NCBI GenBank assembly: GCA_965196605.1 | Contig: CBDAKK010000003.1 | Span: 80,821 to 144,820, forward strand | Length of the DNA stretch: 64,000 nucleotides | Source: Spirochaetia bacterium | GTDB lineage: Bacteria > Spirochaetota > Spirochaetia > WTKD01 > G963693115 | Reading direction: 5' to 3' | Shown: piece by piece, positions 11,005 through 45,729 of the stretch | How the letters are laid out: the number at the start of each line of letters is the position of its first letter | How positions within the stretch are numbered: the stretch's first letter is position 1 | The notes under the pieces: generated by a model | What the model was told of the DNA's origin: nothing | Database searches by the model: none | The model's input: the letters and a program-made list of their open reading frames with translations, nothing else | Position numbers and translations under genes: made by a program

Positions 11005-11108
11005 AGTTGCAATGCTCGCCGTGTTTCTCGCCTCGCGGACGAAGCGCCCTTCATCAACGCTACGGACATACTCATGAACGGAGGGCGCAGCGCGCTGTAT
11101 AACCAGTG
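11005..11108 (+). pseudogene. Diverged duplicate of the 3' end of the SDR gene (gene remnant)
   Basis: Nucleotides 11011-11108 are ~85% identical to 9455-9559 ('gcaatgctc.ccgtgtttctcgcctc...ggagggcgcagcgcgctgtat'). The frame is broken. Confidence 0.7.
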
Positions 11109-11256
11109 GTTTTTACGTTAATTTTTTCCGTCTATGATGGCTTGTACTTTATTGCTCACTCACACTTTATACAGTACTAGTAATATTTGAAAACCTCCAA
11201 AGTATATAATGTAATTGTTATCAAAAAACTAGCAACATCGATTTAGGAGTAGATTT

Positions 11257-16445: not shown

Positions 16446-17294
16446 ATGAGCATGCAGGCTAACACAGTGCCGCTTGCAAGGCTTGTAAAAACCGCATGTA
16501 TGTGGGGAATAGGAATTATATGGATGATACCAATAGTCGGCATTTTTTTTGCCTCCGTGCGTCCTTCGGAAGAACTCGTGCATGGTTGGTGGAACCTCGC
16601 TCCTCTCTCGATGAGCCTCGATAATTATATAAAAGTTCTCTTCACTTCTACTATTCCGCTCATAAGGCCTCTTAAGAATTCCTTGTTCTTATCCCTCATG
16701 GGCACCTTCATTGCCATGTTTCTTGGAAGCTTAGCAGGCTATGGGTTAGCGCGTTACAAAATTCCATTGAAGACGCAACTTGTCGTAGTCTTAATTAGCA
16801 CCATGTCAGTGCCCTTTCAAATGCTCGCAATTCCCGTGTTCAAAATTATGAATTTTCTATCGCTCCTTAATTCACTCTACAGCGTTATGATTATGCATGT
16901 GGTAACAGCATTGCCGTGGATTACTTTTTTCATAATGAACTTCATGCAGACGCAAAACAGCAGCATTGAAGAGTGTGCGAAAATAGATGGGTGTTCGCAG
17001 TTCGGGGTTTTCTTTCGCATTGTTTTGCCTAACCTCTATCCCGCGCTCTTAGCCGTATTTGCCCTGCAATTTGTCTGGAGTTGGATAGATTTTTTCTTCC
17101 CCTTATTGTTTCTGTATACTCCCGACACCTATACCGCGATACAGGTTATTCCGCTTTTACGAGGGCATTTTGTCGCTAACTGGGGCGAATTATCGGCAGC
17201 GTCTGTAGTAGTTATATTTTTTCCCTTTGTTATATTCTTTCTTTTACAGAAGTATTACATAATTTCAGCAGCTGGTTGGCAAGGGAATAAATAA
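16446..17294 (+). CDS. Sugar ABC permease (MalG/UgpE-type)
   Basis: EAA-like 'ECAKIDGCSQFGVFFRIVLPNLYPAL'. The ATG at 16446 overlaps the upstream stop. Confidence 0.8.
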   Translation: MSMQANTVPLARLVKTACMWGIGIIWMIPIVGIFFASVRPSEELVHGWWNLAPLSMSLDNYIKVLFTSTIPLIRPLKNSLFLSLMGTFIAMFLGSLAGYGLARYKIPLKTQLVVVLISTMSVPFQMLAIPVFKIMNFLSLLNSLYSVMIMHVVTALPWITFFIMNFMQTQNSSIEECAKIDGCSQFGVFFRIVLPNLYPALLAVFALQFVWSWIDFFFPLLFLYTPDTYTAIQVIPLLRGHFVANWGELSAASVVVIFFPFVIFFLLQKYYIISAAGWQGNK

Positions 17295-21175: not shown

Positions 21176-21906
21176 AAACAGTTATGAAGGTAAACCTTAG
21201 GTATAAAATTACCAAAGACTATACTCAGTTAAGCGACTGTGCCTCGGATATACTGCTACAAGCCGCGCTCAATGAGAGAGAGGCTACCTTTGTGACAGCG
21301 GCGGGCAGTACCCCCAAGCGTACGTACGAAATGTTTTGTCAAAAATATAAGGCGGAAGGCCTAGCGCCAGATCGAATTCGCATTGTTCTCCTCGATGAGT
21401 GGTGTGGTTTGCCATTTGGGCACCCCTCGTCGTGTTATGCCTTTATAAAAGATACGCTTATAAAGCCCTTGAATATTCCACATGATAATTTCATATATTT
21501 CAACAGTGCCTGCAAAGACACCGAGGCCGAATGTGCACGAATGCAAAAAATTCTCGAGGGTTTGAAAATAAGCGTGTGTGTCTTGGGCACGGGATTAAAC
21601 GGGCACATTGGGTTCAACGAACCCTCAAGGGTGTTTTACGCCAATGTTCATTACACACACTTATCCGCAACCTCACTCGCGCATCCCATGGCACAAGGCA
21701 ATGCCCCGCTCATTACAGGCGGCATTACCCTCGGCATACGCAACATACTTGCGGCTGACACCGTGCTCATGCTTGCCAATGGCGTTAAAAAACGCAAGCA
21801 TATACAACTGCTGGTAAACACCAATACCATTTCGCCCCAGCACCCCCTTACATGCCTTAAGCTACACAAAAATGCCATATGCATTGTAGACCAAAGCTGT
21901 GCATAA
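21172..21906 (+). CDS. nagB: Glucosamine-6-phosphate deaminase/isomerase (NagB family)
   Basis: 'ATFVTAAGSTPKRTYEMF' and 'VCVLGTGLNGHIGFNEP' match NagB-family motifs. Length is 244 aa. Confidence 0.75.
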   Translation: MKTVMKVNLRYKITKDYTQLSDCASDILLQAALNEREATFVTAAGSTPKRTYEMFCQKYKAEGLAPDRIRIVLLDEWCGLPFGHPSSCYAFIKDTLIKPLNIPHDNFIYFNSACKDTEAECARMQKILEGLKISVCVLGTGLNGHIGFNEPSRVFYANVHYTHLSATSLAHPMAQGNAPLITGGITLGIRNILAADTVLMLANGVKKRKHIQLLVNTNTISPQHPLTCLKLHKNAICIVDQSCA

Positions 21907-21954
21907 GCGCTTTGTGGGGGCACGCCCCCACGCCCCCCTTGGGGTAAGACGCTA

Positions 21955-22430
21955 TTTTGCGCTTACGCGCGTGAGGCTGCACGCCGTGTGTGTTCTGCTT
22001 CGCAGTATGTATGCACGCGTGCGTGCTGCCATGGCGTGGGGCGCATTATGATAATGCCTCGGACGGCTGTACTTTCTTTCTTTTCTTTTTGTGCGACGCA
22101 AAAAGAAAAGAAAGAAGAGTACCAAAGAAAGAAAAGAAAAAACCGCTGTGGGGGATGCTCCCCAACACCCCCGAGCATTCAGTGAACATCTTTTGCGCTT
22201 ACGCGCGTGAGGCTACACGCTGTGTGTGTTCTGCTTCGCAGTATGTGTGCACGCTGCGTGCTGCCATGGCGTGGGGCGCATTATGATAATGCCTCGGACG
22301 GCTGTACTTTCTTTCTTTGGTGCGAGTACTCCATTTCTGCACCGTCCATGGCGCTCTTATTTGCCCCATCCATGGGGCGAGCGACCGCTGCGCTCCGCTA
22401 TCTGAATGTCAGCACCCGCTCGCTACGCTT
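21955..22430. repeat. Two tandem ~238 bp repeat units (intergenic repeat family R1) with an internal AAAGAAAAG palindrome
   Basis: 21955-22085 is near-identical to 22193-22317. The palindrome 'ctttctttcttttcttttt-gtgcgacgc-aaaaagaaaagaaagaaga' lies at 22076-22124. Confidence 0.8.
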
Positions 22431-22479
22431 GTGAGCGCGCTCACACAAACTTACTTCCATACGATCTTCATGCTTGCGC

Positions 22480-22800
22480 GCAGTATCTATGGCATTACTG
22501 CTTTAGCACACAGGATGTTTTTGCTATAAGCTCCATCTCTGTGTCGCGTTGCGACACTTATTTTAATCGTTTCTAGCCGCTCGCCTAACGGCTCCCGACT
22601 CTTTTTTTGGTTCTTTTTTTCTCTTTTTGATGCAAGCTCCATGTTTGCACCGCACAGCGGTGCTTATGCAATAGTTGGCATCCCCTCGCTACGCTCGTGA
22701 GCGTCCTCACAGCCGTGCCATGGATGGAGCGCATTGGCTGCCATGGAGGGTAAAAAAGAAAAGAAAGAACGGCCACCCGAATGGATAGCGTATTGAGAAT
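22480..22800. repeat. R1 repeat copy forming the left inverted flank of the DUF285 gene
   Basis: Its reverse complement matches 24945-25260 at ~80% (for example 'gcaagctccatgtttgcaccgcacagcggtgcttatgca' and the 'ccatggatgg...ccatggagggtaaaaaagaaaagaaagaacggcca' core). Confidence 0.75.
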
Positions 22801-23076
22801 AGCTGCTTGGCACGCACGTCCCACGGACGGGACGCATTGTGCGCCAAGGACGGTACAAGAAGCGTTCATACAAGACTGCGTAAGCAAAACTGCGATAGCT
22901 ACCCGCGCGTTAGCGCAGAACTCGCATGATACTCCGCAAGGGGGTGTGGGGGCAGCTCCCCCACAAAGGCAAGCTTGAGCCCCACAAGGGCAAAGTCTCA
23001 TCTAGGGGTTTACATTTCCTAATAATTTCATTATGCTTGCAAATATGAAACAAAACACTTTTTTTAGGAGGACTTT

Positions 23077-24729
23077 ATGAAAAATAATAGTCATAAACAC
23101 ACAAAAACACTTTGTGTAGCACACCTTGTAGTAGCTCTTGCCTTCATGGCTTTGACCCTTGGCGGTTGCGAGCAATTAGGCGATGATCTGGCCCAAAACA
23201 GCATGGGCATTAATAAACTCACCAGCGCTACAGGAGGTGCAGGGGCTTTGCGCGATACATGTACTGCTCAGCCTACGCAGCACCCAAGAAACAAGCAAGC
23301 ATTACAAGCACTGCTTAACAAAGCTATTACCCCAACGACTCCTAGCCCCAATCTCAACTACATTGACACATGGGCCATCACGGATATGAGTAATTTATTT
23401 AAAAACAAATCTACATTCAATGGTGATATACGCTGTTGGGACACCTCCAATGTCACGAATATGGAGAACATGTTTTGGGGGGCTATGAAATTCAACCAAG
23501 ACATTGGTAACTGGGACACCTCCAAGGTCACGAATATGAGCAACATGTTTAGGGACGCTAGAGCCTTCAACCAAGACATTGGTAACTGGGACACCTCCAA
23601 GGTCACGAATATGGAGAGCATGTTTCTTGGTGCTGAAGTTTTCAATCAAGACATTGGTAACTGGGACACCTCCAAGGTCACAGATATGAACCACATGTTT
23701 GCTGATGCTAAAGTTTTCAATCAAGACATTGGTAACTGGAAGACCTCCAAGGTCACGGATATGAGCTACATGTTTCAGGGGGCTACAGCCTTCAACCAAG
23801 ACCTGAGCCGCTGGAATGTAGATAATGTAACTAAGCAGGATCATGTTTTCAACAATGCGACAGAAATGAACAAAAACAAAAGCAAGTGGCCTAAAAAATT
23901 ACTGCGCAATATATGTACTGCCCAATATACTGAGAAGCCACAAAGCACGCAAGAATTACAAGTGCTTATTAACAAAGCTATTACTTCAACAACCCCTAGC
24001 CCCAATCTCAACTACATCGACACATCGGCTATCACCGACATGAGTCGTTTATTTAAAGACAAATATACATTCAATGGCGATATACGCTGCTGGGACACCT
24101 CCAATGTCACGAATATGACACACATGTTTTGGGGTGCTACAGCCTTCAACCAAGACATAGGTAGCTGGGACACCTCCAAGGTCGAGCATATGGGCCACAT
24201 GTTTAGGGAGGCTACAGCCTTCAACCAAGACATTGGTAGCTGGGACACCTCCAAGGTCGAGTATATGTGGGGCATGTTTGAGGGTGCTACAACCTTTAAT
24301 CAAGACATAGGTAGTTGGAAGACCTCCAAGGTCGAGTATATGCAGAGCATGTTTGATGGGGCTAGCGCCTTCAACCAAGACATTAACACGAATACTAAGA
24401 AGAAGACGTGGATCACGTCTGCAGTCACGGATATGCATAGCATGTTTTCTGCTGCTACAGCCTTCAACCAAGACATAGGTAACTGGGACACCTCCAAGGT
24501 CAAGAATATGAAATACATGTTTTCCTGGGCTACAGCCTTCAACCAAGACATTGGTAGGTGGGACACCTCCAAGGTCACGACTATGGAGGACATGTTTTGG
24601 GACGCTAGAGCCTTCAACCAAGACCTGAGCCGCTGGAAGGTAGGGAGTGTGACTAAGTGGAGTCGTATTTTCAAAAATGCGACAGAAATGAACAAAGACA
24701 AAAGCAAGTGGCCTGCAAAATTTAAGTAG
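23077..24729 (+). CDS. DUF285 (BspA-type/Mycoplasma-type) repeat lipoprotein, internally duplicated two-module surface protein
   Basis: Signal peptide with lipobox 'LTLGGC'. More than 14 units of '[16 protein letters not shown]'. Two homologous modules each begin '[31 protein letters not shown]'. RBS AGGAGG upstream. Confidence 0.85.
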
Positions 24730-24944
24730 TTCTGTAATGTAAGGTGAGCCTTTGTGGAGGCTAAGGTTATGTCTCTAATAAGGCATATACACCGATAGCT
24801 GTATTGTTGTTGTGGGGGGAGTGTCCCCCCACGCCCCCCTTGGGGTAAGACGCGCTATTGGCGCTATGCGCGAGCAGCGCGGTATCACTTGCAGTGGGCT
24901 AAGACTGATGCCTTTTGTTGCCACGGCGTCAGCGCACTATGCAA

Positions 24945-25260
24945 ACATTTCGGATGGCCGTTCTTTCTTTTCTTTTTTACCCTCCATGGCAGCCAATGCG
25001 CCCCATCCATGGGGCGGCTGTGATGACGCAAAAAGAGTCGAGAGCGTAGCGAACGGGTGCAAACTACTGCATAAGTGCCGCGATGCGGCACAAACATGGA
25101 ACTTGCACCAAAGAAAGTACCAAAGAAAAGAAAAAAACATCCTGTGTGCTAAAGCAGTAATGACATAGATACGCTGCGCAAGTATTAAACAGCACCAAAA
25201 CATGAGCGAAGGGATGCAAACTATTGCATATTGCCTTGTGGAGGGAGTGTCCCCCCACGC
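24945..25260. repeat. R1 repeat copy forming the right inverted flank of the DUF285 gene
   Basis: Inverted relative to 22480-22800. It contains the same ccatgg...aaagaaaagaaag core. Confidence 0.75.
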
Positions 25261-25502
25261 CCCCCACGGGGTAAGACGCGGTATTTGCATATGCAGTGCA
25301 GCGCGGTGTCACTTGCAGTGGGCTAAGACTGATGCCTTTTGTTGCCACGGCGTCAGCGCACTATTGTACCGTTGCAAGTGATTTGAGAAAAAGTTGCAGT
25401 TGAATTGAGAAAATACCGTGTTTTAGCGTGTCTATGTGTGTTTTAACGTGTCTTTACATGGGATTTAATGAGGATAGAGATGTGGTAGTAGAGTGTGTCT
25501 TG

Positions 25503-26327
25503 TCACTCCTCTTGGAACTGCATTAAGTCAACCAAGTCATACTGTTTTTCCAGTGTATAATTTGCGGTGAGCACCTCGGTTTTTTCCTTCTCTCGCGTAC
25601 CGGTTCCTATAGAGACCGTGAATTTCATGCGCTTTGTATCCCAGCGGTGTTTCTGTATGTACTCTTCCAGCACGGGTGAGGGGTAGGAGCTCAGAAGAAA
25701 CTTGCCCTCAATGGCACTAAGTGCTGTGAGGAGCGCAGTGTAGTCTTCTATGGTGTACCCGTCATAGTGACCACAGTCGCTGTTGTAGTATGGTGGGTCG
25801 CAATAGAAGAGGGTGTGAGGGCTGTCGTAGGTACGTATGATTTTAATGGCGTCTGTACACTCAAGTTGTACGTGTTGTAAACGCTGTGCGTAGTGGTAAG
25901 AGAATGTATCGCGTTTGCGTGCTATTTTGCGGGCAGTAGTGCCGCTCATGTCGTATCCGAAAGAGCCATCAAGCATGGAGCAGAACGATTCTTGAGACAA
26001 AACCCACACTGCCCACGCGCGCTCTAAGGGTGAGAAGCGGTGCGGGTTATTGTATGTAACAAGCGCGTCATGGTGTGCCATGCGGCTGTGGAGCGTGATT
26101 TGTATTTGTTTCTCAAGTGAGACAAAGTCCTGCTGTACGATGCGGTAGAAGTTCATAAGCTCACCGTTGGTATCATTGAGTGTCTCCATCTCTGAGGGTT
26201 TCTTTGCAAAGAAGATAGCGGCACCACCACAAAATGGCTCAACGTAGCATGTGTGTGGATGGAGGAGAGGGACGATTTCTTTGACGAGGTTTTGCTTGCC
26301 TCCGTAATAGCTCACTGGCGTCTTCAT
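25503..26327 (-). CDS. DNA adenine methyltransferase, Dam/D12-class (copy B, left arm)
   Basis: 'YYGGK', 'EPFCGGAAIFF' and the catalytic 'DPPY'. It is 98% identical to the 32746..33570 product. Confidence 0.85.
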   Translation of the reverse strand: MKTPVSYYGGKQNLVKEIVPLLHPHTCYVEPFCGGAAIFFAKKPSEMETLNDTNGELMNFYRIVQQDFVSLEKQIQITLHSRMAHHDALVTYNNPHRFSPLERAWAVWVLSQESFCSMLDGSFGYDMSGTTARKIARKRDTFSYHYAQRLQHVQLECTDAIKIIRTYDSPHTLFYCDPPYYNSDCGHYDGYTIEDYTALLTALSAIEGKFLLSSYPSPVLEEYIQKHRWDTKRMKFTVSIGTGTREKEKTEVLTANYTLEKQYDLVDLMQFQEE

Positions 26328-27184
26328 GCAGCCACCTCACATGGTTTGAGTGCATACTCTTGTGCGATGAGCTCTATATCGTAGTTTGCGGTGAGTACTT
26401 CGGTTTTTGATTTGGTATGACCTTGAGATGAATTAGCAATACGTCTCTTAGAACACTGTGTGTGCCAGCCGTATTCCGATATGAAACTCTGCAGAGTGTC
26501 CGAGGGATACGAACTTAAGAGAAACATTCCCTGTATAGCACTAAGGCTTGTTAGGAGTGCGTGAAAGTCATGCTCGGAGTATCCGCCGTAGTGTCCCATA
26601 TGTGCATTAAAGTATGGTGGGTCGCAATAGAAGAGCGTGTGTGGAGTATCATAGCGTTGTATGATAGTGAGCGCATCGTCCGAATCGAGTTGCACATGCT
26701 TGAGGCGTTGCGCGAGTGTGTGAACATCAAAGGCATCTCGTTTGCGCGCGAGTGCGTTACTTGTTGTGCTACGCACGGAGCGAGAGAAACTGAAGGCGCC
26801 GTGGAAGTCGTGTGCGAATGATTGATGCGCTAAGACCCACACAGCCCATGCGCGTTTTACGGGGCTAAAGAGGTGTGGGTTCTGATAGACAACACGTGCA
26901 TCGCTGTGAGCTCTGCGACTATGGGGTGTGCTAATAATAAGAGATGTAAGTTCTTGGTTCTGTGTTTGCACGACTGAAAAGAAGTTAGTAATTTCAGCGT
27001 TGGTGTCATTGAGTGTTTCAATGGGCGCGGGTTCTTTTGCGAAAAAGACGGCCGCGCCGCCACAAAATGGCTCGACATAGCATGTGTGAGGATGCAGTCG
27101 TGGCACGATGGTGCTGGTCATAGACTGCTTACCTCCATAATAGGTAAGTGGTGTTTTCATAAGAAGTTCAAATACTCGGTACAT
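26324..27184 (-). CDS. DNA adenine methyltransferase, Dam/D12-class (copy A, left arm)
   Basis: 'YYGGKQ', 'EPFCGGAAVFF' and 'FYCDPPYFNAH'. It is ~90% identical to the right-arm copy at 31889..32749. Confidence 0.85.
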   Translation of the reverse strand: MYRVFELLMKTPLTYYGGKQSMTSTIVPRLHPHTCYVEPFCGGAAVFFAKEPAPIETLNDTNAEITNFFSVVQTQNQELTSLIISTPHSRRAHSDARVVYQNPHLFSPVKRAWAVWVLAHQSFAHDFHGAFSFSRSVRSTTSNALARKRDAFDVHTLAQRLKHVQLDSDDALTIIQRYDTPHTLFYCDPPYFNAHMGHYGGYSEHDFHALLTSLSAIQGMFLLSSYPSDTLQSFISEYGWHTQCSKRRIANSSQGHTKSKTEVLTANYDIELIAQEYALKPCEVAA

Positions 27185-27334
27185 AGTAGCTTGCTACACA
27201 CCGATATAAAGATATGGTGGTAGCAGTGTTACCGTGTGTGGGGTTGTTTGTTAACACCACATAGGGGCTGTGAGTATTCTTTTACAATACTCGCCAGTGG
27301 GTGCTGGTACACCCGCAGGCTGCCACTTTTTTGT

Positions 27335-27742
27335 TTATGGTAGCGCGTCTTTTTTTGCTTTACTAAGTTTCTTTTGAGCGTCTACATATGCACGGTATTC
27401 GTGGTAGTGGCGGTAGTCAATATTGGTGGTATCCGTGATTTTGTTTATGCACACGCGTATGCCGCAGTTTATGTAGTAGGCTTCGTTTTTGCCTTTTTCG
27501 CGTGCCCAGTTTTGAATGGCAGCGTCAGTTTCTCCGTCAATACAGTCTTCCTGCTCTGCACGCGTGGCGGCGTCTACCCATGTGCCTGTGGTGGTATCGC
27601 CGACCCATGAGGGCTTGAGCATGGCCTGCGGCGGCGGTGTGGTGTGTGCTATGGTAAGACTTAAGTCTTTGGGTGGTGGGCTATCAAACTGCCCTATGAT
27701 GTGTCCATTTTTGTCTAGTTCGTAATATGTTTTTGTGCTCAT
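27335..27742 (-). CDS. Small phage protein in the tail-fibre-assembly-chaperone (P2 gpG) position, left arm
   Basis: 135 aa and 100% identical to 31331..31738. It sits downstream of the tail-fibre-like gene. The functional call is from position and size only. Confidence 0.4.
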   Translation of the reverse strand: MSTKTYYELDKNGHIIGQFDSPPPKDLSLTIAHTTPPPQAMLKPSWVGDTTTGTWVDAATRAEQEDCIDGETDAAIQNWAREKGKNEAYYINCGIRVCINKITDTTNIDYRHYHEYRAYVDAQKKLSKAKKDALP

Positions 27743-27755
27743 TTTTAGTGCTCCT

Positions 27756-28730
27756 TTATGCAGTGCGTTTCCAAATACGCACGGTGTAATTTACGGGTCT
27801 ATTTTCAGCTGCAGTGGTAACTACTGTAGATACGGAAAATCTATATCCTACTCTATCACTGTGTCTTCTAGATGAGCCATCTGACCAACCCCAGTCGTCT
27901 CCTTGATCTACAATGCTCATGTTTTGTTGCGAGCCATAACCCCATCCCAAATTTGTCTTAAATGCAAATGTAAAATCTCGAATAGCATCAGTCTGTTTTC
28001 CTGTTTGAAATTTTTTTGCGCCATAATAGTCGTTGTCCCTACCCTCGGCACGAAAGAAGCAATCTGCGTATTGACTACTGATGTTTTGCCATGTCATGGT
28101 GTTGCCCCAGAGTTGTTGTGGAGTAGGTTGGTTTGGAAACTGGGTGTAGATAAAGCCGATGGGAATGGCGGAATTTAGTACGTCTTTCTTTGCTTGCGTG
28201 ATGGCGTTTTGTGCTTCGGTTTTTGCTTTGGTGATTTCAGCCATAAGTTCACTTTTTAACTGCTGACGTAGTGAGGTAAGAGAATTCCATCCGTGCGCAG
28301 ATTCACGGGGTGTAAGGTCGATGGTATTGTTTTTCACTTGTGCGAGGACAACATCATTGGCTTGTTTGTCCGTAGACAAAACGACATGCACGGTAGTCTT
28401 ATCCCCGCGTGTTTTCCATGTTTGCTTTTGTTGAATATCGTGCGTTGTGGTAGTATCTACAACCGAGTGACGCAGTACCACGAGTCCGTCTTTTTTATCT
28501 ATTGTAGTCTTGGCGGTGAGCGCGAGCCGTTGTCCATTAGGGGCAACAGCATCTCCCGCACTAATGACAACCTTCCCCGCGCCATCCATGCTCACGGTTA
28601 GCCCCGAGAGTACACCCGTGCCTGTGATAGCGTGCGTACTCTCATGTAGCGCATCCTCGGTATTCTGCTGAAGTATATCGAAGTCGTTGGGGGTAGGTGT
28701 CATACCTTCGTAAAAATGATGTTTTTTCAT
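27756..28730 (-). CDS. Putative phage tail-fibre / receptor-binding protein (P2 gpH position), left arm
   Basis: 324 aa and 100% identical to 30343..31317. The Thr/Gly-rich N-terminal part and a C-terminal region ('IGFIYTQFPNQPTPQQLWGN...CFFRAEG') are reminiscent of tail-collar-type domains. Gene order J-I-H-G. Confidence 0.5.
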   Translation of the reverse strand: MKKHHFYEGMTPTPNDFDILQQNTEDALHESTHAITGTGVLSGLTVSMDGAGKVVISAGDAVAPNGQRLALTAKTTIDKKDGLVVLRHSVVDTTTTHDIQQKQTWKTRGDKTTVHVVLSTDKQANDVVLAQVKNNTIDLTPRESAHGWNSLTSLRQQLKSELMAEITKAKTEAQNAITQAKKDVLNSAIPIGFIYTQFPNQPTPQQLWGNTMTWQNISSQYADCFFRAEGRDNDYYGAKKFQTGKQTDAIRDFTFAFKTNLGWGYGSQQNMSIVDQGDDWGWSDGSSRRHSDRVGYRFSVSTVVTTAAENRPVNYTVRIWKRTA

Positions 28731-29338
28731 AAGTTTCTATCTCCTGTGTTTGTATGTGATTTTTTCGTGTTTTCATTAAAAATAACAAAGCCTACATCGG
28801 GTGGGGTGTTGGTCTCTAGGTAACTTGCTAACTCTGTACGTTTTTCTCTCGTACTGTTTTGTATAGAGAGATAGAGCCCCTCACCGTTCATGATGATGCC
28901 TGTTTTGATGGGTGTGCCGTATGGTGCATGTCCTACGGTGAACGCATCCTTAGGCATTTCTATGATGCGGTATCGGTCTTTAAAATTGCTGTTCATGAAT
29001 TCCGTGAGAGCCTTTCTGGTACCGAGGTACTTCATGGTACGCGATGCTAAGGCTAGACGTTCACGCATACTGGTCTCGCTTTCATTCCCAACTTCTGGAA
29101 GCGCTAATGCGTTCGCATGCATGTTCATGTAGTGTCTATTACCCAAAGAGGGGAAGAACCCGCGAAAGAGAGAACGCGTATCGTATATTAGGATACCGAG
29201 CAGTATGTGGAGTACTACATAAAGTTTTCCGAGTTTGGGGCGAGTTCTGTCTTTTTCAAACGAGTGTTGTGCAACTAAAAGCAAAGTGGCTCCGCTCTGC
29301 AACAGGCGATGTGCCACTACTTTACAAAGCAGAGTCAC
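28727..29338 (-). CDS. Phage tail protein I-like (P2 gpI position), left-arm diverged copy
   Basis: 203 aa. The C-terminal 30 aa are identical to the 29768..30346 product, and the remainder is ~60-75% identical. The 5' end abuts and overlaps the baseplate-J fragment. Confidence 0.45.
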   Translation of the reverse strand: MTLLCKVVAHRLLQSGATLLLVAQHSFEKDRTRPKLGKLYVVLHILLGILIYDTRSLFRGFFPSLGNRHYMNMHANALALPEVGNESETSMRERLALASRTMKYLGTRKALTEFMNSNFKDRYRIIEMPKDAFTVGHAPYGTPIKTGIIMNGEGLYLSIQNSTREKRTELASYLETNTPPDVGFVIFNENTKKSHTNTGDRNL

Positions 29339-29763
29339 AGGGCATAGATGGCGTTAGAGAAGCAAAAGTGTTTCGTGCGCCCAGTGGGTTTGGGTCAGTG
29401 CGCGTGGTGCTACGCGGTGCAAACAATACGCAAGTCGGTACTGATATAGTGACAAAGGTGCGTGCTCGACTCGATACAGTGGGGCTTATAGGGCGAAATA
29501 CGGTAGTCGATACCGTAGGATTCGCCCCTCTTACCGTCAGTTGTACCTATGCAGGTACACTTACGGAAACAGAAGCAAAAAAAAGAATAACCGACTATTT
29601 TTATTCGCTTGGCATTGGCACGCGCTATACCATGCAAGATTTATACAACTTGTTTGACGACCAAGATGCCATTCAGTTTACCACGCCAACGGCAAGCGAT
29701 AAGACGCTTGGCAATGATGGTGTATACAAACTTACAAGCGTGAGGGCAACCAAGAAGGTGTAG
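29320..29763 (+). pseudogene. Baseplate J-like protein, C-terminal fragment only (truncated at the inverted-duplication junction)
   Basis: 'VRVVLRGANNTQVGTDIVTKVRARLDTVGLIGRNTVVDTVGF' is baseplate-J C-terminal-like. The upstream part of the ORF (29044-29338) overlaps the antisense I' gene. No N-terminal J domain is present. Confidence 0.5.
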
Positions 29764-29767
29764 TGTA

Positions 29768-30346
29768 ATGGCGTTTGAAAAATTTGTAGAAAAACAGATA
29801 GAAAAAAGCTCGTATGAAGGAGACCGGAAGAAAATACAGCTCGGCCGGTTGTATTCGGTGATGCGAGTATTGTGTGCAGTTGTAGCAAGCGATACACGAG
29901 ATGTGTTTCGAGCATTTTTCCCCGCGTTGGGTACTCGCACTTTTATGGACAGACACGCTAAAGCATTAGCGTTACCACACATTAAAAACGAAAGTGACAA
30001 AAGTTTGAGAGACCGCCTTACTGTTGCAACGCATACGATGACCTATCTCGGTACGCGCCAAGCATTCACTCAGTTTATGGAGAGTAATTTTAAGAGTAGG
30101 TGCCGCGTCATTGAAATGCCGAAGAATGCGTTTACTGTAGGACACCTACCCTATGGCACGCCCATTGGCACTGGCATAATTATGGCTGGCGAAGGACTCT
30201 ATGTGTACGTGCAAAACATTACGGCAGAGGAACGCATTGAGCTTGAAAGTTACCTAGAGACCAACACCCCGCCCGATGTAGGCTTTGTTATTTTTAATGA
30301 AAACACGAAAAAATCACATACAAACACAGGAGATAGAAACTTATGA
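29768..30346 (+). CDS. Phage tail protein I-like (P2 gpI position), right arm
   Basis: 192 aa. It immediately follows the J fragment, overlaps the start of the downstream tail-fibre-like gene, and is paralogous to 28727..29338. Confidence 0.45.
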   Translation: MAFEKFVEKQIEKSSYEGDRKKIQLGRLYSVMRVLCAVVASDTRDVFRAFFPALGTRTFMDRHAKALALPHIKNESDKSLRDRLTVATHTMTYLGTRQAFTQFMESNFKSRCRVIEMPKNAFTVGHLPYGTPIGTGIIMAGEGLYVYVQNITAEERIELESYLETNTPPDVGFVIFNENTKKSHTNTGDRNL

Positions 30347-31317
30347 AAAAACATCATTTTTACGAAGGTATGACACCTACCCCCAACGACTTCGATATAC
30401 TTCAGCAGAATACCGAGGATGCGCTACATGAGAGTACGCACGCTATCACAGGCACGGGTGTACTCTCGGGGCTAACCGTGAGCATGGATGGCGCGGGGAA
30501 GGTTGTCATTAGTGCGGGAGATGCTGTTGCCCCTAATGGACAACGGCTCGCGCTCACCGCCAAGACTACAATAGATAAAAAAGACGGACTCGTGGTACTG
30601 CGTCACTCGGTTGTAGATACTACCACAACGCACGATATTCAACAAAAGCAAACATGGAAAACACGCGGGGATAAGACTACCGTGCATGTCGTTTTGTCTA
30701 CGGACAAACAAGCCAATGATGTTGTCCTCGCACAAGTGAAAAACAATACCATCGACCTTACACCCCGTGAATCTGCGCACGGATGGAATTCTCTTACCTC
30801 ACTACGTCAGCAGTTAAAAAGTGAACTTATGGCTGAAATCACCAAAGCAAAAACCGAAGCACAAAACGCCATCACGCAAGCAAAGAAAGACGTACTAAAT
30901 TCCGCCATTCCCATCGGCTTTATCTACACCCAGTTTCCAAACCAACCTACTCCACAACAACTCTGGGGCAACACCATGACATGGCAAAACATCAGTAGTC
31001 AATACGCAGATTGCTTCTTTCGTGCCGAGGGTAGGGACAACGACTATTATGGCGCAAAAAAATTTCAAACAGGAAAACAGACTGATGCTATTCGAGATTT
31101 TACATTTGCATTTAAGACAAATTTGGGATGGGGTTATGGCTCGCAACAAAACATGAGCATTGTAGATCAAGGAGACGACTGGGGTTGGTCAGATGGCTCA
31201 TCTAGAAGACACAGTGATAGAGTAGGATATAGATTTTCCGTATCTACAGTAGTTACCACTGCAGCTGAAAATAGACCCGTAAATTACACCGTGCGTATTT
31301 GGAAACGCACTGCATAA
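30343..31317 (+). CDS. Putative phage tail-fibre / receptor-binding protein (gpH position), right arm
   Basis: Identical 324 aa protein to 27756..28730. Even the embedded antisense ORFs are identical, so the two copies are identical at nucleotide level. Confidence 0.5.
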   Translation: MKKHHFYEGMTPTPNDFDILQQNTEDALHESTHAITGTGVLSGLTVSMDGAGKVVISAGDAVAPNGQRLALTAKTTIDKKDGLVVLRHSVVDTTTTHDIQQKQTWKTRGDKTTVHVVLSTDKQANDVVLAQVKNNTIDLTPRESAHGWNSLTSLRQQLKSELMAEITKAKTEAQNAITQAKKDVLNSAIPIGFIYTQFPNQPTPQQLWGNTMTWQNISSQYADCFFRAEGRDNDYYGAKKFQTGKQTDAIRDFTFAFKTNLGWGYGSQQNMSIVDQGDDWGWSDGSSRRHSDRVGYRFSVSTVVTTAAENRPVNYTVRIWKRTA

Positions 31318-31330
31318 AGGAGCACTAAAA

Positions 31331-31738
31331 ATGAGCACAAAAACATATTACGAACTAGACAAAAATGGACACATCATAGGGCAGTTTGATAGCCCACCAC
31401 CCAAAGACTTAAGTCTTACCATAGCACACACCACACCGCCGCCGCAGGCCATGCTCAAGCCCTCATGGGTCGGCGATACCACCACAGGCACATGGGTAGA
31501 CGCCGCCACGCGTGCAGAGCAGGAAGACTGTATTGACGGAGAAACTGACGCTGCCATTCAAAACTGGGCACGCGAAAAAGGCAAAAACGAAGCCTACTAC
31601 ATAAACTGCGGCATACGCGTGTGCATAAACAAAATCACGGATACCACCAATATTGACTACCGCCACTACCACGAATACCGTGCATATGTAGACGCTCAAA
31701 AGAAACTTAGTAAAGCAAAAAAAGACGCGCTACCATAA
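31331..31738 (+). CDS. Small protein in the tail-fibre-assembly (gpG) position, right arm
   Basis: Identical 135 aa protein to 27335..27742. Confidence 0.4.
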   Translation: MSTKTYYELDKNGHIIGQFDSPPPKDLSLTIAHTTPPPQAMLKPSWVGDTTTGTWVDAATRAEQEDCIDGETDAAIQNWAREKGKNEAYYINCGIRVCINKITDTTNIDYRHYHEYRAYVDAQKKLSKAKKDALP

Positions 31739-31888
31739 ACAAAAAAGTGGCAGCCTGCGGGTGTACCAGCACCCACTGGCGAGTATTGTAGAAGCATACT
31801 CACAGCCCCTATGTGGTGTTACAACACAACCCCACACACGGTAACACTGCTACCACCATACTGTTATATCGGTGTGAGGCAGGTTACT

Positions 31889-32749
31889 ATGTACGGAGTA
31901 TTTGAACTTTTTATGAAAACACCACTTACCTATTACGGAGGTAAACAGTCTATGACACGCACCATCGTGCCACGACTGCACCCTCACACGTGCTATGTCG
32001 AGCCCTTCTGTGGCGGCGCGGCCGTCTTTTTCGCAAAAGAACCCGCGCCCATTGAAACACTCAATGACACCAACGCTGAAATTACAAACTTCTTTTCAGT
32101 CGTGCAAACAAAAAAACAGGAACTTACATCTCTTGTTGTAAGCACATCTCATAGTCGCAGAGCTCACAGCGATGCTCGTGTTGTCTATCAGAACCCACAC
32201 CTCTTTAACCCCGTAAAACGCGCATGGGCTGTGTGGGTCTTAGCGCATCAATCATTCGCACACGACTTCCATGGTGCCTTCAGGTTCTCTCGCTCCGTGC
32301 GTAGCACAACAAGTAACGCACTCGCGCGCAAACGAGATACCTTCGATGTCCACACACTCGCACAACGCATCAAGTATGTGCAGTTAGAATGTGACGATGC
32401 ACTCACCATCATACAACGCTATGATACTCCGCACACGCTTTTCTACTGCGACCCACCATACTTTAATGCACATATGGGACACTACGGAGGATACACCGAA
32501 CAAGACTTTTACGCACTCCTGAAAAGTCTTAGTGCTATACAGGGAACATTTCTCTTAAGTTCGTATCCCTCGGACACTCTGCAGAGTTTCACCTCAAAAC
32601 ACGGATGGTACACACAGTGTTCTCGGAGACGTATTGTTAATTCGCCTCAAGGTCATACTAAATCAAAGACCGAAGTACTTACCGCAAACTACAATACAGA
32701 GTTCATCGCACAAGAGTATGCACTCAAACCATGTGAGGTGGCTGCATGA
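31889..32749 (+). CDS. DNA adenine methyltransferase, Dam/D12-class (copy A', right arm)
   Basis: Same motifs as 26324..27184 ('EPFCGGAAVFF', 'DPPYFNAH'). The start is chosen at 'MYGVFELFMKTPL', matching the left copy. Confidence 0.8.
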   Translation: MYGVFELFMKTPLTYYGGKQSMTRTIVPRLHPHTCYVEPFCGGAAVFFAKEPAPIETLNDTNAEITNFFSVVQTKKQELTSLVVSTSHSRRAHSDARVVYQNPHLFNPVKRAWAVWVLAHQSFAHDFHGAFRFSRSVRSTTSNALARKRDTFDVHTLAQRIKYVQLECDDALTIIQRYDTPHTLFYCDPPYFNAHMGHYGGYTEQDFYALLKSLSAIQGTFLLSSYPSDTLQSFTSKHGWYTQCSRRRIVNSPQGHTKSKTEVLTANYNTEFIAQEYALKPCEVAA

Positions 32750-33570
32750 AGACGCCAGTGAGCTATTACGGAGGTAAGCAAAATCTCGTCAAAGAAATCG
32801 TCCCACTCCTACACCCACACACCTGTTACGTAGAACCCTTCTGCGGCGGTGCCGCTATCTTCTTCGCAAAGAAACCTTCAGAAATGGAAACACTTAACGA
32901 CACAAACGGTGAGCTTATGAATTTCTACCGCATAGTACAGCAAGACTTTGTCTCACTCGAAAAACAAATACAAATCACGCTTCACAGCCGTATGGCACAC
33001 CACGATGCGCTTGTTACATACAACAACCCGCACCGCTTCTCGCCCCTTGAGCGTGCGTGGGCAGTGTGGGTTTTGTCTCAAGAATCGTTCTGCTCCATGC
33101 TTGATGGCTCTTTCGGATACGACATGAGCGGCACTACTGCCCGCAAAATAGCACGCAAACGCGATACATTCTCTTACCACTACGCACAGCGACTCCAGCA
33201 TGTACAGCTCGAATGTACAGACGCGATTAAAATCATACGCACCTACGACAGTCCTCATACTCTCTTTTACTGCGACCCACCGTATTACAACAGCGACTGT
33301 GGACACTATGACGGATACACCATAGAAGACTACACCGCACTCCTCAAGGCACTTAGTGTCATTGAGGGAAAATTCCTGTTAAGTTCTTATCCATCACCCG
33401 TGCTGGAAGAGTGCATACAGAAACACCGCTGGGATACAAAGCGCATGAAATTCACGGTTTCTATAGGAACTGGTACTCGGGACAAGGAAAAAACCGAGGC
33501 GCTTACCGCAAATTACACACTGGAAAAACAATACGATTTAGTCGATTTGATGCAGTTCCGAGAAGAGTGA
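32746..33570 (+). CDS. DNA adenine methyltransferase, Dam/D12-class (copy B', right arm)
   Basis: 274 aa. It differs from 25503..26327 by about 5 residues. Confidence 0.85.
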   Translation: MKTPVSYYGGKQNLVKEIVPLLHPHTCYVEPFCGGAAIFFAKKPSEMETLNDTNGELMNFYRIVQQDFVSLEKQIQITLHSRMAHHDALVTYNNPHRFSPLERAWAVWVLSQESFCSMLDGSFGYDMSGTTARKIARKRDTFSYHYAQRLQHVQLECTDAIKIIRTYDSPHTLFYCDPPYYNSDCGHYDGYTIEDYTALLKALSVIEGKFLLSSYPSPVLEECIQKHRWDTKRMKFTVSIGTGTRDKEKTEALTANYTLEKQYDLVDLMQFREE

Positions 33571-34018
33571 CAAAATACACTCTATTACCCCCCCATTAAA
33601 TCCCATCTAAAGACACGTTAAAACACATATAGACACTCTAAAATACGGTATTTTCTCAATTCAACTGCAACTTTTTCTCAAATCACTTGCCCCCTACAGC
33701 ACAAAGAGTTGTAGTATATAAAACTCATTTGTATATGCTACAACTCTAATTGCTTGGTTTATCTCATTTTTTTAGCGGAATTTATCTCGCGCGGGTATAC
33801 ATAATTTAACTCCTGTAAAATATTAATTTTTATGTATGTACAGTATAACATAATTACAAATTAATTAAATTAATATTTCATTTGTGAAATTTATGTGAGA
33901 ATAAATTATGAGACTGCCAGCATAGCTTCGCCAGCAATGATGACGCACAAATAACTTGCAGCCTGCAGGTTTGGGTGGCGTTGTCGTTTCTAGGCTGTAA
34001 AGCAACTCACTTCAGCGC

Positions 34019-44595: not shown

Positions 44596-45729
44596 TTATT
44601 TGAATTTCGGCCATTTACTTTTATCTTTGTTCATTTTTGTCACACTGTTAAAAATATTATCCCACCTCGTCACACTATCTACCTTCCAGCCGCTAAGGTC
44701 TTGGTTGAACGCTGTAGCACGAGCAAACATCCATGCCATATTCGTGACTTTGGACGTGTCCCAGCTACCAATGCCTTGGTTGAAAGATGTAGCACTATAA
44801 AACATGTCTTCCATATTCTTTACCTGAGACGTGTCCCAGTTACTAATGTCTTCGTTAAAAGCTATAGCCTTAGAAAACATATATGACATATCCCTGACCT
44901 GAGAGGTGTTCCACTGACCAATGTCTTGGTTGAAAGATGTAGCACTATAAAACATGTCTTCCATATTCTTTACCTGAGACGTGTCCCAGTTACTAATGTC
45001 TTCGTTAAAAGCTATAGCCTTAGAAAACATATATGACATATCCCTGACCTGAGAGGTGTTCCACTGACCAATGTCTTGAGTGAAAACCCCAGCCCCCCAA
45101 AACATGCCTACCATATCCGTGACCTGAGACGTGTTCCAGCACTTTATATCACCATTGAATTTAGATTCCCCTTGAAATAAACGATTCATATTAGTAATAG
45201 CTGATGTATCGATGTGATTGAGATTAGGACTAGGAGTCGCTGAGGTAATAGCCTTGTTAAGCAATGCTTGTAATGCTACCTTGTTTTGTGGATGCTGAGT
45301 CTCTGTTGCACCACATGAATTCTTCCAGATTACCGACAAGCTTATATCAGAAGTAATTGCTGTGTTCTCATCATGCTTTTGCTTGTTATGTTCGAAGCGT
45401 TCTAGCGTACGGGTTATTCCATTGACCACACTATACGTAAGTTTGCTCGTTATACCAACATCTTTTAAGCTTTGACCAGCTTTGAGGATAAGGGTATTGT
45501 CTGTAGACCCTCCCGTTAAGGTACCTCCATGTAATGCAAAGGTTACGGTAAATGAGCTGGTGGCTAATTTATTCATGCCAATGGTGTTTAAGGGGCTTGA
45601 AACTAAGTTTTGAGCTGCATCATCTAATAATTGATCGCATCCCCCAAAGGTAAAAGTTATTAAAGCAAAGGTTGTTACAACGATTACTGCGCGAAATGCT
45701 TGTATGTATTTATGATTACTGTGTTTCAT
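44596..45729 (-). CDS. DUF285 repeat lipoprotein (paralog 2) with a distinct N-terminal domain and an exact 150 bp internal tandem duplication
   Basis: Lipobox 'FTFGGC'. Repeats of 'FNEDISNWDTSQVKNMEDMFYSATSFNQDIGQWNTSQVRDMSYMFSKAIA' occur twice identically (nt 44770-44920 equals 44920-45070). The 5' leader resembles that of the 23077 gene. Confidence 0.85.
   Translation of the reverse strand: MKHSNHKYIQAFRAVIVVTTFALITFTFGGCDQLLDDAAQNLVSSPLNTIGMNKLATSSFTVTFALHGGTLTGGSTDNTLILKAGQSLKDVGITSKLTYSVVNGITRTLERFEHNKQKHDENTAITSDISLSVIWKNSCGATETQHPQNKVALQALLNKAITSATPSPNLNHIDTSAITNMNRLFQGESKFNGDIKCWNTSQVTDMVGMFWGAGVFTQDIGQWNTSQVRDMSYMFSKAIAFNEDISNWDTSQVKNMEDMFYSATSFNQDIGQWNTSQVRDMSYMFSKAIAFNEDISNWDTSQVKNMEDMFYSATSFNQGIGSWDTSKVTNMAWMFARATAFNQDLSGWKVDSVTRWDNIFNSVTKMNKDKSKWPKFK

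Follow-up and report, generated by a model that had tools for sequence, protein, structure and literature searches.

Two Mu-like phage right ends lying head-to-head: a probable prophage remnant in an uncultured spirochaete

Deletion derivatives of Mu prophages have lost the left (early) region and kept the right-end genes. This right end (S/U, mom, attR) is built in Mu and Mu-like phages from baseplate and fibre genes, a small ORF, a DNA-modification gene and the right terminus. The mom position is held by the Dam-related methylases Hin1523, Nma1821 and Hia5 in FluMu, Pnme1 and an element of H. influenzae aegyptius (PMC3299994). Transposable prophages also occur in spirochaetes: those of Leptospira carry a DNA methyltransferase as one of their conserved orthologous groups and, where intact, are bounded by 6-bp target duplications (PMC8705779).

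Here, we describe a spirochaete locus with the same right-end order in two inverted copies. The window, that is, the whole stretch of DNA analysed (64 kb), contains an inverted repeat of ~3.8 kb per arm, which is 92% identical overall and includes a perfect tract of 1,519 bp. A repeat search of the window pairs 25484-29183 with 29890-33589 (3,700 nt, 92% complementary) and the outer tips 25374-25473 with 33591-33690 (100 nt, 95% complementary), in agreement with the ~3.9-kb reverse-complementary arms of a first-pass annotation. Its gene content also holds for both arms: an I-position ORF, a 324-aa ORF (H), a 135-aa ORF (G) and two PF02086 D12-class methylases (MT-A and MT-B). We consider it probable that the region is a defective remnant, in which two Mu-like (transposable) myophages, related yet distinct and hosted by an uncultured spirochaete, have left their right ends head-to-head, phage B on the left and phage A on the right. 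An intact prophage A (L001/L135) sits on another contig. The features of the locus are the following (coordinates, strand, description):

25236..25364, unstranded: host intergenic repeat copy abutting the left arm, 92-99% identical to window 24810-24940
25374..25473, minus: non-coding outer tip of the left arm, starting 5'-TG
25503..26327, minus: MT-B, left copy, 274 aa, Dam-family N6-adenine DNA methyltransferase (PF02086, 82 bits; DPPY at residue 177)
26324..27184, minus: MT-A, left copy, 286 aa, paralogue of MT-B (PF02086, 67 bits; DPPY at residue 188)
27283..28801, partner 30272..31790, unstranded: perfect-identity tract, 1,519 nt, the longest perfect run, with flanks 82% and ~91% identical
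27335..27742, minus: G, left copy, 135-aa ORF where a fibre chaperone would lie, 100% identity with the right copy
27756..28730, minus: H, left copy, 324-aa baseplate-attached fibre or receptor-binding protein (domain, profile and model evidence)
28727..29275, minus: I gene, left copy (Mu gp48 / P2 gpI position), ~10 codons lost at the 5' end, identified by alignment to the right copy
29275..29276, unstranded: central junction, ...GTGTTGTGCAAC / TAAAAGCAAAGTGG..., with identity to the intact prophage starting exactly at 29276 (L001 8934, J codon 201)
29276..29763, plus: remaining 3' part of the baseplate J gene (codons 201-362 of 362), with a Baseplate_J match and the same sequence as in the complete 362-aa J of L001
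29768..30346, plus: I gene, right copy, intact, 192 aa, same sequence as P0002 and the L001/L135 gene
30343..31317, plus: H, right copy, 324-aa fibre protein, same protein in the intact prophage L001
31331..31738, plus: G, right copy, 135-aa ORF in the chaperone position (by position and identity)
31889..32749, plus: MT-A, right copy, 286-aa form, ORF extendable upstream to 31811 (by identity to the left copy and motifs)
32746..33570, plus: MT-B, right copy, 274 aa (by identity to the left copy and motifs)
33571..33799, plus: non-coding right end of phage A, whose terminal module finishes with ...GCGCGGGTATA-3'

Window positions 29276-33799 match L001 8934-13458 with 0 substitutions over 4,524 nt and one homopolymer indel. 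The intact prophage encodes a Mu-like protease, gpT capsid, Mu gp36, tail S, DUF2586 sheath, tape measure and Baseplate_J (362 aa), followed by ORFs of 192, 324, 135, 286 (methylase) and 274 aa (methylase) and then by non-phage genes; with Mu gpT, Mu protease and Mu gp36 upstream, it supports the earlier view of the J-I-H-G order as Mu-like and phage-derived. Over its full length, its capsid shares 46.5% identity with the capsids of MP22, DMS3 and JBD, which are transposable phages of Pseudomonas. As the right arm is the end of this intact Mu-like prophage (J, I, H, G, MT-A, MT-B), each arm can be read as a Mu-like right end. Beyond 33799 / L001 13458 the two sequences are unrelated, so the same phage occupies different chromosomal sites, and from its head-gene family, the differing flanks and its end repeats we infer that phage A transposes. 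Judging by sequence identity, the right arm appears to be a very recent copy of phage A that still ends at the phage's right terminus. This end comprises an inner repeat pair (33647-33690), a hairpin (33705-33747) and GAGATAAA motifs 12-19 and 35-42 nt from the tip; its final ...TA-3' fits the TA-TA class (PMC8705779) and also the ends of the record of Winogradskyella phage Peternella_1.

With 93.7% identity to phage A, the left arm would derive from a separate, diverged lineage; its I and MT-B proteins were found on this contig only, and no intact phage B was seen. Two tandem 22-bp repeats at its tip, TGCAAGTGATTTGAGAAAAAGT and TGCAGTTGAATTGAGAAAATAC, are candidate sites for transposase binding: as a pair, the motif is confined to the two arm tips within the 64-kb window, and the left pair is as far from its tip as the terminal pair of phage A. 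On the right, the phage sequence extends to 33799, 109 bp past the repeat, and this stretch has no counterpart in the left arm, where the host repeat at 25236-25364 occupies its place. The host repeat copies diverge at 25365, 9 bp before the left arm tip. This tip may have been truncated, or it may be an intact end of a different type. The element is not bracketed by a 5- or 6-bp target duplication (ACCGT versus CATAA), and therefore it did not arrive as a unit. The site is flanked by a DUF285 gene and iolB. Among the flanking ORFs examined no recombinase was found, as had been stated before.

At the centre, J is truncated at the junction, as annotated, with only codons 201-362 left, and the central ORF accordingly matches Baseplate_J by its C-terminal part only; the full-length 362-aa J matches PDB baseplate-J / triplex proteins at 5e-7. 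The proposed ~430-bp core was correct in containing J only as a C-terminal part, but the unique centre extends from 29276 to ~29797 and includes, besides J codons 201-362, the start of the right I gene (~10 codons). Similarly, the 203-aa ORF that had been taken for the left I gene is a chimera, whose first 21 codons are antisense J. As the junction lies inside both genes, interrupting J at codon 201 and the left I gene ~10 codons in, it looks like an illegitimate deletion.

Along the arms, divergence changes from gene to gene. The I genes share 69% nucleotide and 66% amino acid identity, H and G are 100% identical, and the values are 91.9% and 89.6% for MT-A and 89.5% and 97.8% for MT-B; the mosaic described earlier, with identical H and G and ~90% for MT-A, therefore stands, except that ~98% for MT-B applies to the protein only. 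Between arms, dS is >2 (2.2) for I, 0 for H and G, 0.22 for MT-A and 0.70 for MT-B, and dN/dS is 0.14 for I, 0.23 for MT-A and 0.018 for MT-B. By these estimates, the arms would be mosaic in the manner of phages, having diverged under purifying selection and not by decay in situ. An inverted duplication, as the locus had been named, does not describe it: a free-standing prophage matches the right arm without a substitution and the left one at 93.7%, and dS runs from 0 to >2. The perfect tract covers the last 25 codons of I, the whole of H and G and ~50 bp further, and 1,519 identical bases in a row amid ~8% divergence are far beyond chance. It is probably a gene-conversion tract, for which the conversion between arms suggested earlier is a reasonable reading, but it could also be a module that both phages had in common before insertion.

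The products of the tail genes are recognizable to different degrees. A profile of the I family gave a weak match to PDB 9ki1, 'Baseplate protein gp48' (E=0.011), and family searches with the 135-aa ORF gave no match. The C-terminal domain of the 324-aa protein (~residues 165-324) occurs in >1,000 proteins, where Kelch, C-type lectin, CBM and tail-collar modules are its fusion partners; its alignment profile matches the 'Short tail fiber' 9cuy at 3e-14, and the folds that an AlphaFold2 model (pLDDT 76.7) resembles, at a borderline level, are those of TssK, a CIS baseplate protein and T4 gp10. Beside these fibre genes the remainder of the tail is missing: nothing for sheath, tube or hub is encoded in the window.

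None of the four methylase copies is disrupted; each has FCGGAA and DPPY motifs, and MT-A and MT-B are paralogues (57% identity). MT-B scores 93.5 bits against TIGR00571 dam, below the cut-off, matches E. coli Dam structures at 1e-10 and is 57% identical to the last gene of Peternella_1. In an intact phage, such an enzyme would protect phage DNA against restriction. The attachment of methylases to tail-fibre genes had been called unusual. Yet a Dam-family methylase comes last or nearly last, right after the tail-fibre genes, in both Peternella_1 and Shewanella phage MuM16-1, methylase homologues lie near one end of other 37-40 kb phage records (e.g. Curvibacter TJ1 and Pseudomonas Bise), and FluMu, Pnme1 and Hia5 are further cases (PMC3299994). 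By analogy, this placement appears to be normal for Mu-like phages. The local variation is the tandem paralogue pair only; a single methylase holds this position in the 26 IMG/VR relatives found.

These observations suggest the following course. Each arm would represent the last genes of a phage, namely I (baseplate wedge partner), the fibre gene H, the small chaperone-position gene G and two Dam-family paralogues at the mom position, adjoining the right terminus. Two prophages may have lain in opposite orientation, so that their left ends (transposase, kil, lysis) pointed at each other. At least one illegitimate deletion would then have taken out both left halves and joined codon ~10 of the phage B I gene to codon 201 of the phage A J gene; such deletions would be favoured because they disarm the prophages. 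Finally, RecA-type gene conversion between the inverted arms may have homogenised 1.5 kb (the end of I, H and G). Of the earlier description as 'domesticated or decaying', the second half is apt, given the truncated J and I genes, and no sign of domestication was found.

It is unlikely, though, of the alternatives, the least so, that the locus arose by an in-situ fold-back (template-switch) duplication of one prophage right end, with the left arm later partly overwritten by a second phage. The unique spacer from J codon 201 to I codon ~10, the start of the arms inside I and the sameness of H and G in both arms would suit such an event. However, it calls for at least two replacement tracts (I; MT-A through MT-B to the tip) in place of one conversion tract, it sits poorly with the strong dS differences between neighbouring genes, and it should have passed the terminus into an inverted right flank, whereas the left arm is without the terminal 109 bp and abuts the host repeat. 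It is very unlikely that a metagenome or long-read assembly joined two prophage copies artificially, as a chimera or hairpin. The source does look metagenome-assembled, the window-specific proteins are on a single contig of 209,485 bp (NCBI, ENA), and identical 1.5-kb repeats together with several related prophages in the population may confuse an assembler; missing-adapter or hairpin errors, however, yield identical arms and no spacer, instead of 92% arms around a ~0.5-kb unique centre, and overlap-based joining across a repeat would not bring together two non-homologous, oppositely oriented positions such as J codon 201 and I codon ~10.

We give least credence to a retained device, in which the arms recombine by homology, so that the centre is flipped or the copies become alike (host-range or methylation phase variation), or in which two right ends form a 'mini-Mu' mobilisable by a resident helper phage. 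The four methylase ORFs and both copies of H and G are intact, the methylases are under strong purifying selection, the repeat pairs at both tips resemble transposase-binding sites, and intact phage A is in the same population. Yet the purifying selection is explained by divergence inside functional phages, and the right arm, with 0 substitutions relative to the intact phage, is too recent to have decayed. Flipping 28802-30271 swaps gene fragments only, and as the fibre and chaperone-position copies are identical, it offers no alternative state; neither this locus nor the intact phage has an invertase. Mobilisation as a unit is at odds with the lack of a target-site duplication around the 8.4-kb unit and of the phage A terminal module at the left tip, and the tail genes are useless without those for sheath, tube and hub. 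The switch proposed in the first-pass annotation thus does not agree with identical fibre copies, genes diverging from the centre, a centre of fragments and a missing invertase. The head-to-head remnant is a structure without a predicted switching function, and ordinary prophage decay is its most likely origin.

Among the described systems, the Mu-like right end resembles this remnant in gene order, in its Dam-related mom-position methylases with motif I and DPPY, and in the Mu-type head genes of the intact relative. By score, the enzymes here come closer to classical Dam than is described for Hia5, which gives its name to a non-specific subfamily (PMC3299994). Mu-like phages have one modification gene in place of two tandem paralogues, Mu has the gin invertase and G segment, neither of which is found here, and here right ends alone survive, twice and inverted. 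Peternella_1 (NC_062754), a transposable myophage of Flavobacteriia, has the closest methylase among deposited phages (both 274 aa), encoded by its last gene, 70 bp from the right end, after a ~311-aa tail-fibre gene and a small ORF of 112 aa that holds the position of our 135-aa ORF; MuM16-1 has the same layout. Peternella_1 shares the DUF2586 sheath with phage A, encodes transposases A and B at its left end, and its record has TA at both ends and paired repeats spaced by ~22 bp. However, its fibre and I-position proteins have no detectable similarity to those here, and it has a single methylase in an intact 39.6-kb genome. The Leptospira transposable prophages (PMC8705779), likened by description, share spirochaete hosts, a size of ~38 kb and the conserved methyltransferase group; their TA-TA group has the terminus of phage A, which is known by one end, and their 6-bp target duplications cannot exist around this remnant.

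The Mu G segment (Gin) and P1 C segment (Cin) also have inverted fibre and chaperone-position copies beside a DNA-modification gene in a Mu-like context. Unlike here, they are flipped by a serine invertase at ~34 bp repeats, not flanked by kilobase repeats, the G segment genes converge instead of diverging from the centre, and their fibre copies differ in specificity; intact phage A has a single, non-invertible copy. The loss of the transposase, kil and lysis side, the retained right-end late genes and the illegitimate junction are reminiscent of the Mu deletion derivatives, with the difference that here two truncated ends of different lineages meet at one junction.

The element at about 25374-33799 of the window sits among chromosomal genes for sugar and inositol catabolism and is a genuine inverted repeat, as the first-pass annotation had described it; a repeat search of the window, the ORFs and their Pfam matches all bear this out. 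Read from the centre outwards, each arm carries an I-position ORF (I), a 324-aa ORF (H), a 135-aa ORF (G) and two PF02086 (D12-class) adenine methyltransferases (MT-A and MT-B). The central ORF matches the Baseplate_J family (J) solely in the C-terminal part of that family, in line with the earlier description of the core, but some details of that description needed revision: the 203-aa left 'I' ORF is a chimera whose codons 1-21 are antisense J, the unique centre spans 29276 to about 29797, and on the right phage-derived sequence runs past the repeat. The parts of the element are the following:

25374-25473 and 33591-33690: pair of outer tips, 100 nt, 95%
25484-29183 and 29890-33589: inverted arms, 3,700 nt, 92% complementary
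27283-28801 and 30272-31790: tract of perfect identity between the arms, 1,519 bp
29275/29276: central junction
29276 to about 29797: unique centre
33691-33799: phage-derived sequence extending 109 bp past the repeat, on the right side only

When the 324-aa protein was looked up by exact sequence, it was found on another contig (L001/L135; ENA ERZ25066843 ctg2040_69x_c, 49,815 bp), in which the late region of a prophage is intact. Other contigs carry this protein as well, five in number, the longest of 1.14 Mb. Its gene order runs from a Mu-like protease (PF10123), a Mu gpT major capsid protein (PF10124), Mu gp36 (PF07030), tail S, a DUF2586 sheath and a tape measure protein through small baseplate proteins to Baseplate_J (362 aa) and ORFs of 192, 324, 135, 286 (methylase) and 274 aa (methylase), and then to non-phage genes. 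Positions 29276-33799 of the window are collinear with 8934-13458 of this contig without a single substitution. Over 4,524 nt the two differ just once, in how long a C-homopolymer in non-coding DNA after MT-B is (about 33588-33595); this may be a homopolymer error of sequencing or assembly. Beyond 33799 and 13458 the two sequences are unrelated, and the flanks differ: in the window the phage adjoins the iolB operon, in L001 a gene cluster that includes a BCCT transporter. The point where identity stops is therefore the right terminus of a phage, which we call phage A and which resides at different chromosomal sites in the two contigs. We considered whether the terminal 109 bp might be a host repeat, and rejected this, as they occur nowhere but at the phage end.

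Host-like genes (the BCCT transporter, a SPASM-domain protein) take up more than 7 kb of the contig with the intact prophage. The suffix of this contig's name suggests a circular call; it may be a chromosomal segment circularised by mistake, or the prophage may sit on a plasmid. Host intergenic repeat families occupy 21900-22970 and 24810-25364 of the window, where a 131-bp unit (24810-24940) recurs at 25236-25364 (92-99%), and 16895-17139 and 19931-20634 of L001. That related host repeats flank the intact prophage suggests that both contigs come from closely related hosts. Directly left of the element lies a gene for a 550-aa DUF285 (BspA-like) surface-type protein with an internal 75-nt periodicity (23077-24729). 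Elsewhere in the window, most of which has 45-55% GC, we noted a three-gene DUF2157-DUF4401-GDYXXLXY cluster of low GC (11257-13851; 34-42%), a second repeat-rich surface-type protein, namely a lipoprotein with PARCEL repeats (44596-45729), and a gene for a GmrSD-family type IV (modification-dependent) restriction endonuclease (56859-58508) within an island of 31-32% GC.

The head genes identify the phage as Mu-like: in L001, PF10124, PF10123 and PF07030 precede the shared J, I, H, G and methylase genes. For gpT, 891 family homologues turned up. The phage A capsid is 46.5% identical, over its full length, to those of the transposable Pseudomonas phages MP22, DMS3 and JBD24 (JBD phages), and the sheath is distantly related to those of Faecalibacterium phage Mushu, Meiothermus phages MMP7 and MMP17 and Flavobacterium phages. 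A DDE transposase (MuA) and a MuB-type ATPase are present in Winogradskyella phage Peternella_1 and in Shewanella MuM16-1, both of which carry a homologous methylase at the right end. We therefore take each arm to be a right-end module from a Mu-like myophage; a transposase and a left end of phage A would lie outside the sequence seen here. This lineage, from an uncultured spirochaete, is rare. Only three members of the I-position family were found in 5.8 billion protein clusters, and no further copies turned up for H in species-representative genomes, IMG/VR and deposited phages, for the I alignment in IMG/VR and JGI metagenomes, or for a DNA pattern built from the end repeats in JGI metagenomes. 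An empty-site and synteny test based on IolB, whose gene adjoins the element, turned up no sister genome of sufficient closeness: the protein is at best 60% identical to proteins from Spirochaetia MAGs, and IolB relatives in species-representative genomes, again no more than 60% identical, have no neighbour genes in common with the left flank.

The tail proteins agree with this assignment to different degrees. J matches PF04865 and, at 5e-7, baseplate-J and triplex proteins in the PDB. The I-position protein has no Pfam, PHROG or NCBIfam match, and its family profile gives a weak, collinear match to PDB 9ki1, 'Baseplate protein gp48' (E=0.011). In H, the C-terminal ~160 residues are common to more than 1,000 proteins with varied N-termini, where this domain is fused to Kelch, C-type lectin, CBM or tail-collar modules, and the alignment profile matches a 'Short tail fiber' in the PDB at 3e-14. 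The N-terminus of H gives a weak CIS13 match. We disregarded matches of the H alignment to C-type lectins in the PDB, which stem from N-terminal lectin domains of some of the aligned homologues. A single-sequence structure model of H was unusable (pLDDT 36); an alignment-based AlphaFold2 model (pLDDT 76.7) gave borderline fold matches, at E of about 1e-3, to TssK, a contractile-injection-system baseplate protein and T4 gp10. Taken together, these results make H look like a modular protein of the fibre or receptor-binding kind. For the 135-aa ORF no relatives were detected beyond this phage group, and it is termed chaperone-like by its position only. Profiles of H and I showed no homology to the Peternella_1 proteins at the same positions.

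With the right arm being phage A, the left arm stands for a diverged type, phage B, which is seen solely here. It is 93.7% identical to free-standing phage A, and the degree of divergence changes abruptly along its length:

Identity and divergence between the left and right arms (segment; nucleotide identity; amino acid identity; dS; dN/dS)
I genes; 69%; 66%; above 2 (saturated); 0.14
End of I, H, G and ~50 bp beyond (perfect tract); 100%; 100%; 0 for H and G; not applicable for H and G
MT-A; 91.9%; 89.6%; 0.22; 0.23
MT-B; 89.5%; 97.8%; 0.70; 0.018

The mosaic identity reported by the first-pass annotation is thus real, with 1,519 bp at 100% beside I genes at 69%, and its percentages for the methylases hold at the protein level. 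A simple duplication, as it had proposed, is at odds with a right arm equal to phage A, a left arm only 93.7% identical to it and the jumps in dS along the arms. Such abrupt shifts are the expected pattern for a mosaic of two lineages that diverged as functional phages while exchanging modules, and are unlike the decay of two copies in place. The perfect tract, in which the H and G copies are complete and divergently oriented, has sharp borders, beyond which identity falls to 82% at one end and about 91% at the other. A recent gene conversion between the inverted arms is the best reading of it, the alternative being a module recently shared by both phages. Since another contig carries a third version of the 135-aa protein, 93% identical, the H/G module is not invariant in the population. 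Read as conversion, the locus offers a clean natural case of a sharp 1.5-kb tract between diverged inverted repeats.

How the two arms came to face away from each other can be judged from their ends and from the junction. The right end of phage A (33691-33799, equal to L001 13350-13458) finishes ...GCGCGGGTATA-3' (...TATA-3'). Copies of the motif GAGATAAA lie 12-19 and 35-42 nt from the end, followed by a hairpin and, ~110 bp further in, a second repeat pair. The left tip reads 5'-TGCAAGTGATTTGAGAAAAAGT TGCAGTTGAATTGAGAAAATAC, starts with 5'-TG and has its motif pair at 13-20 and 35-42 nt, the spacing of the terminal pair of phage A. The left arm ends at the inner repeat pair, adjoining a copy of the host intergenic repeat, and its tip could be either truncated or the intact end of some other type. 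No target duplication of 5 or 6 bp surrounds the 8.4-kb unit (ACCGT/TACCGT on the left versus CATAA/CATAAT on the right, or CCCCT there when the inner end is taken), so the unit was not inserted as one transposon, and for two truncated prophages the lack of a duplication is expected. At the centre, identity to phage A begins at 29276, which is codon 201 of 362 in J, and to the left, on the opposite strand, lies a B-type I gene missing ~10 codons. The junction joins two internal, non-homologous positions in opposite orientation and is therefore an illegitimate join. Strand transfer by a transposase was discarded as its maker, since it would have placed a phage terminus there, and none is present. 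Scanning for promoters and terminators was not informative (3 promoter-like sites versus 14 expected), and no Rfam families or tRNAs were found.

In our view, the region is most likely a defective Mu-like prophage remnant, built from the right ends of Mu-like phages. Its history would most likely have started with two related prophages in opposite orientation, with the left end of each pointing towards the other. Illegitimate deletion, in one or more steps, would then have removed both left parts, with repressor, transposase, kil and lysis genes, heads and most tail genes, together with any host DNA between the two; deletions of this kind are favoured by selection, since they disarm prophages. 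Gene conversion over H and G between the surviving right ends would have come afterwards. A fold-back duplication of a single prophage end would account for the geometry of two arms around a spacer, but it requires two later replacement tracts and should have given the left arm a copy of both terminus and right flank, neither of which it has, and we consider it unlikely. An assembly chimera is very unlikely, given that hairpin artefacts yield identical arms without a spacer and that the junction does not lie at a repeat.

The first-pass annotation had suggested a domesticated or decaying tail module that could act as a switch of host range or methylation. It was right that no recombinase is encoded nearby: among the ORFs examined, up to about 10 kb away in both directions, none has a recombinase domain, nor does any in the right end of the intact phage. 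A shufflon resembling the G segment was rejected, as there is neither a serine invertase nor a set of alternative fibre ends; in place of alternative convergent fibre C-termini with short crossover repeats, the H and G copies are identical, divergent and complete. Lacking the defining features of Gin/Cin/Hin-type systems, the element is not an invertible switch of this kind. Moreover, recombination between the perfect repeats would flip just 28802-30271, which holds gene fragments, and the fibre genes stand in the remnant without the rest of the tail; a host-range or methylation switch is thus not supported. No evidence for domestication was found either. The right arm, with no substitutions relative to the intact phage, has had too little time to decay: at least the right half of the element is very young, which explains its intact ORFs without domestication.

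A reading in which selection, as opposed to passive scarring, maintains the remnant deserves very little credence, since nothing observed supports a selected switch or a mobilisable element with two right ends. It comes in two versions. If the methylases had been co-opted by the host, with the arms as mutual repair templates, the four intact genes (two diverged paralogue pairs) would serve, for example, epigenetic regulation or protection from methylation-sensitive defence; if the unit were a mini-phage with two right ends, a resident intact phage A would mobilise and package it, spreading a cassette of fibre and methylase genes. As it stands, a striking 8-kb palindrome with tail-fibre genes and four methylase genes is most likely prophage debris, and its annotation is corrected here. 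To call it a phase-variation locus, or its enzymes host 'orphan' methylases, would take expression data. The novelties are small ones: a rare phage lineage, tandem methylase paralogues and a TA-finishing end outside Leptospira.

The methylases themselves are paralogues with 57% identity. They score 67-82 bits against PF02086 (gathering cut-off 22), match E. coli Dam structures at 1e-10 and retain motif I (FCGGAA) and DPPY in all four copies, and are hence predicted to be N6-adenine methyltransferases of the D12/Dam family. Against the NCBIfam model 'dam' for site-specific GATC enzymes they reach 93.5 and 77.2 bits, below its curated cut-off of 114.85. The frame of the right-arm MT-A can be extended upstream to a 312-aa ORF (31811-31888 versus 27185-27262 on the left), whereas both the intact phage and the left arm give 286 aa. 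A mom-type promoter would be expected in the ~150 bp that separate the 135-aa ORF from MT-A, a stretch that lies within or borders the tract of perfect identity.

MT-B ends 229 bp from the terminus of phage A, which is the position of mom in Mu. The best match among deposited phages is the last gene of Peternella_1, of the same length, 57% identical and 70 bp from the right end, and the fully annotated Mu-like phage MuM16-1 has the same arrangement. Homologues lie near one end of the 37-40 kb records of Curvibacter TJ1, Pseudomonas Bise, Acidovorax Aval and Ralstonia YO374_1 and occur in Campylobacter prophage-fragment records (cje0220), and at the matched position each of the 26 IMG/VR loci found with MT-A has just one homologue. 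In FluMu, Pnme1 and an H. influenzae aegyptius element, the mom position of Mu is taken by Dam-related methylases, enzymes that shield DNA from many restriction enzymes (Drozdz et al.; PMC3299994), and a DNA methyltransferase is among the conserved orthologous groups of Leptospira transposable prophages (Olo Ndela et al.; PMC8705779). Given these examples, a methylase beside tail-fibre genes is the rule for such phages and not the oddity that the first-pass annotation saw in it; the tandem pair of diverged Dam-family paralogues is the only local peculiarity. With the non-specific m6A methylases of the Hia5/Hin1523 type (PMC3299994), MT-A and MT-B share the syntenic position.

The ends allow a similar comparison. 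A 'TA-TA' class of transposable prophage ends was described in Leptospira, its occurrence in other bacteria being left open (PMC8705779). The TA finish of phage A, of which the right end alone is seen, is consistent with this class, and its repeats are candidate transposase-binding sites. The Peternella_1 record (NC_062754; 1-60, 39590-39649) starts with 5'-TA, finishes with TA-3' and has paired repeats ~22 bp apart; together, the two phages hint that TA-TA ends are not confined to Leptospira. Peternella_1 is also comparable in its layout, with transposases A and B at the left end, a DUF2586 sheath, and a tail fibre gene, a small ORF and a methylase gene as its last genes.
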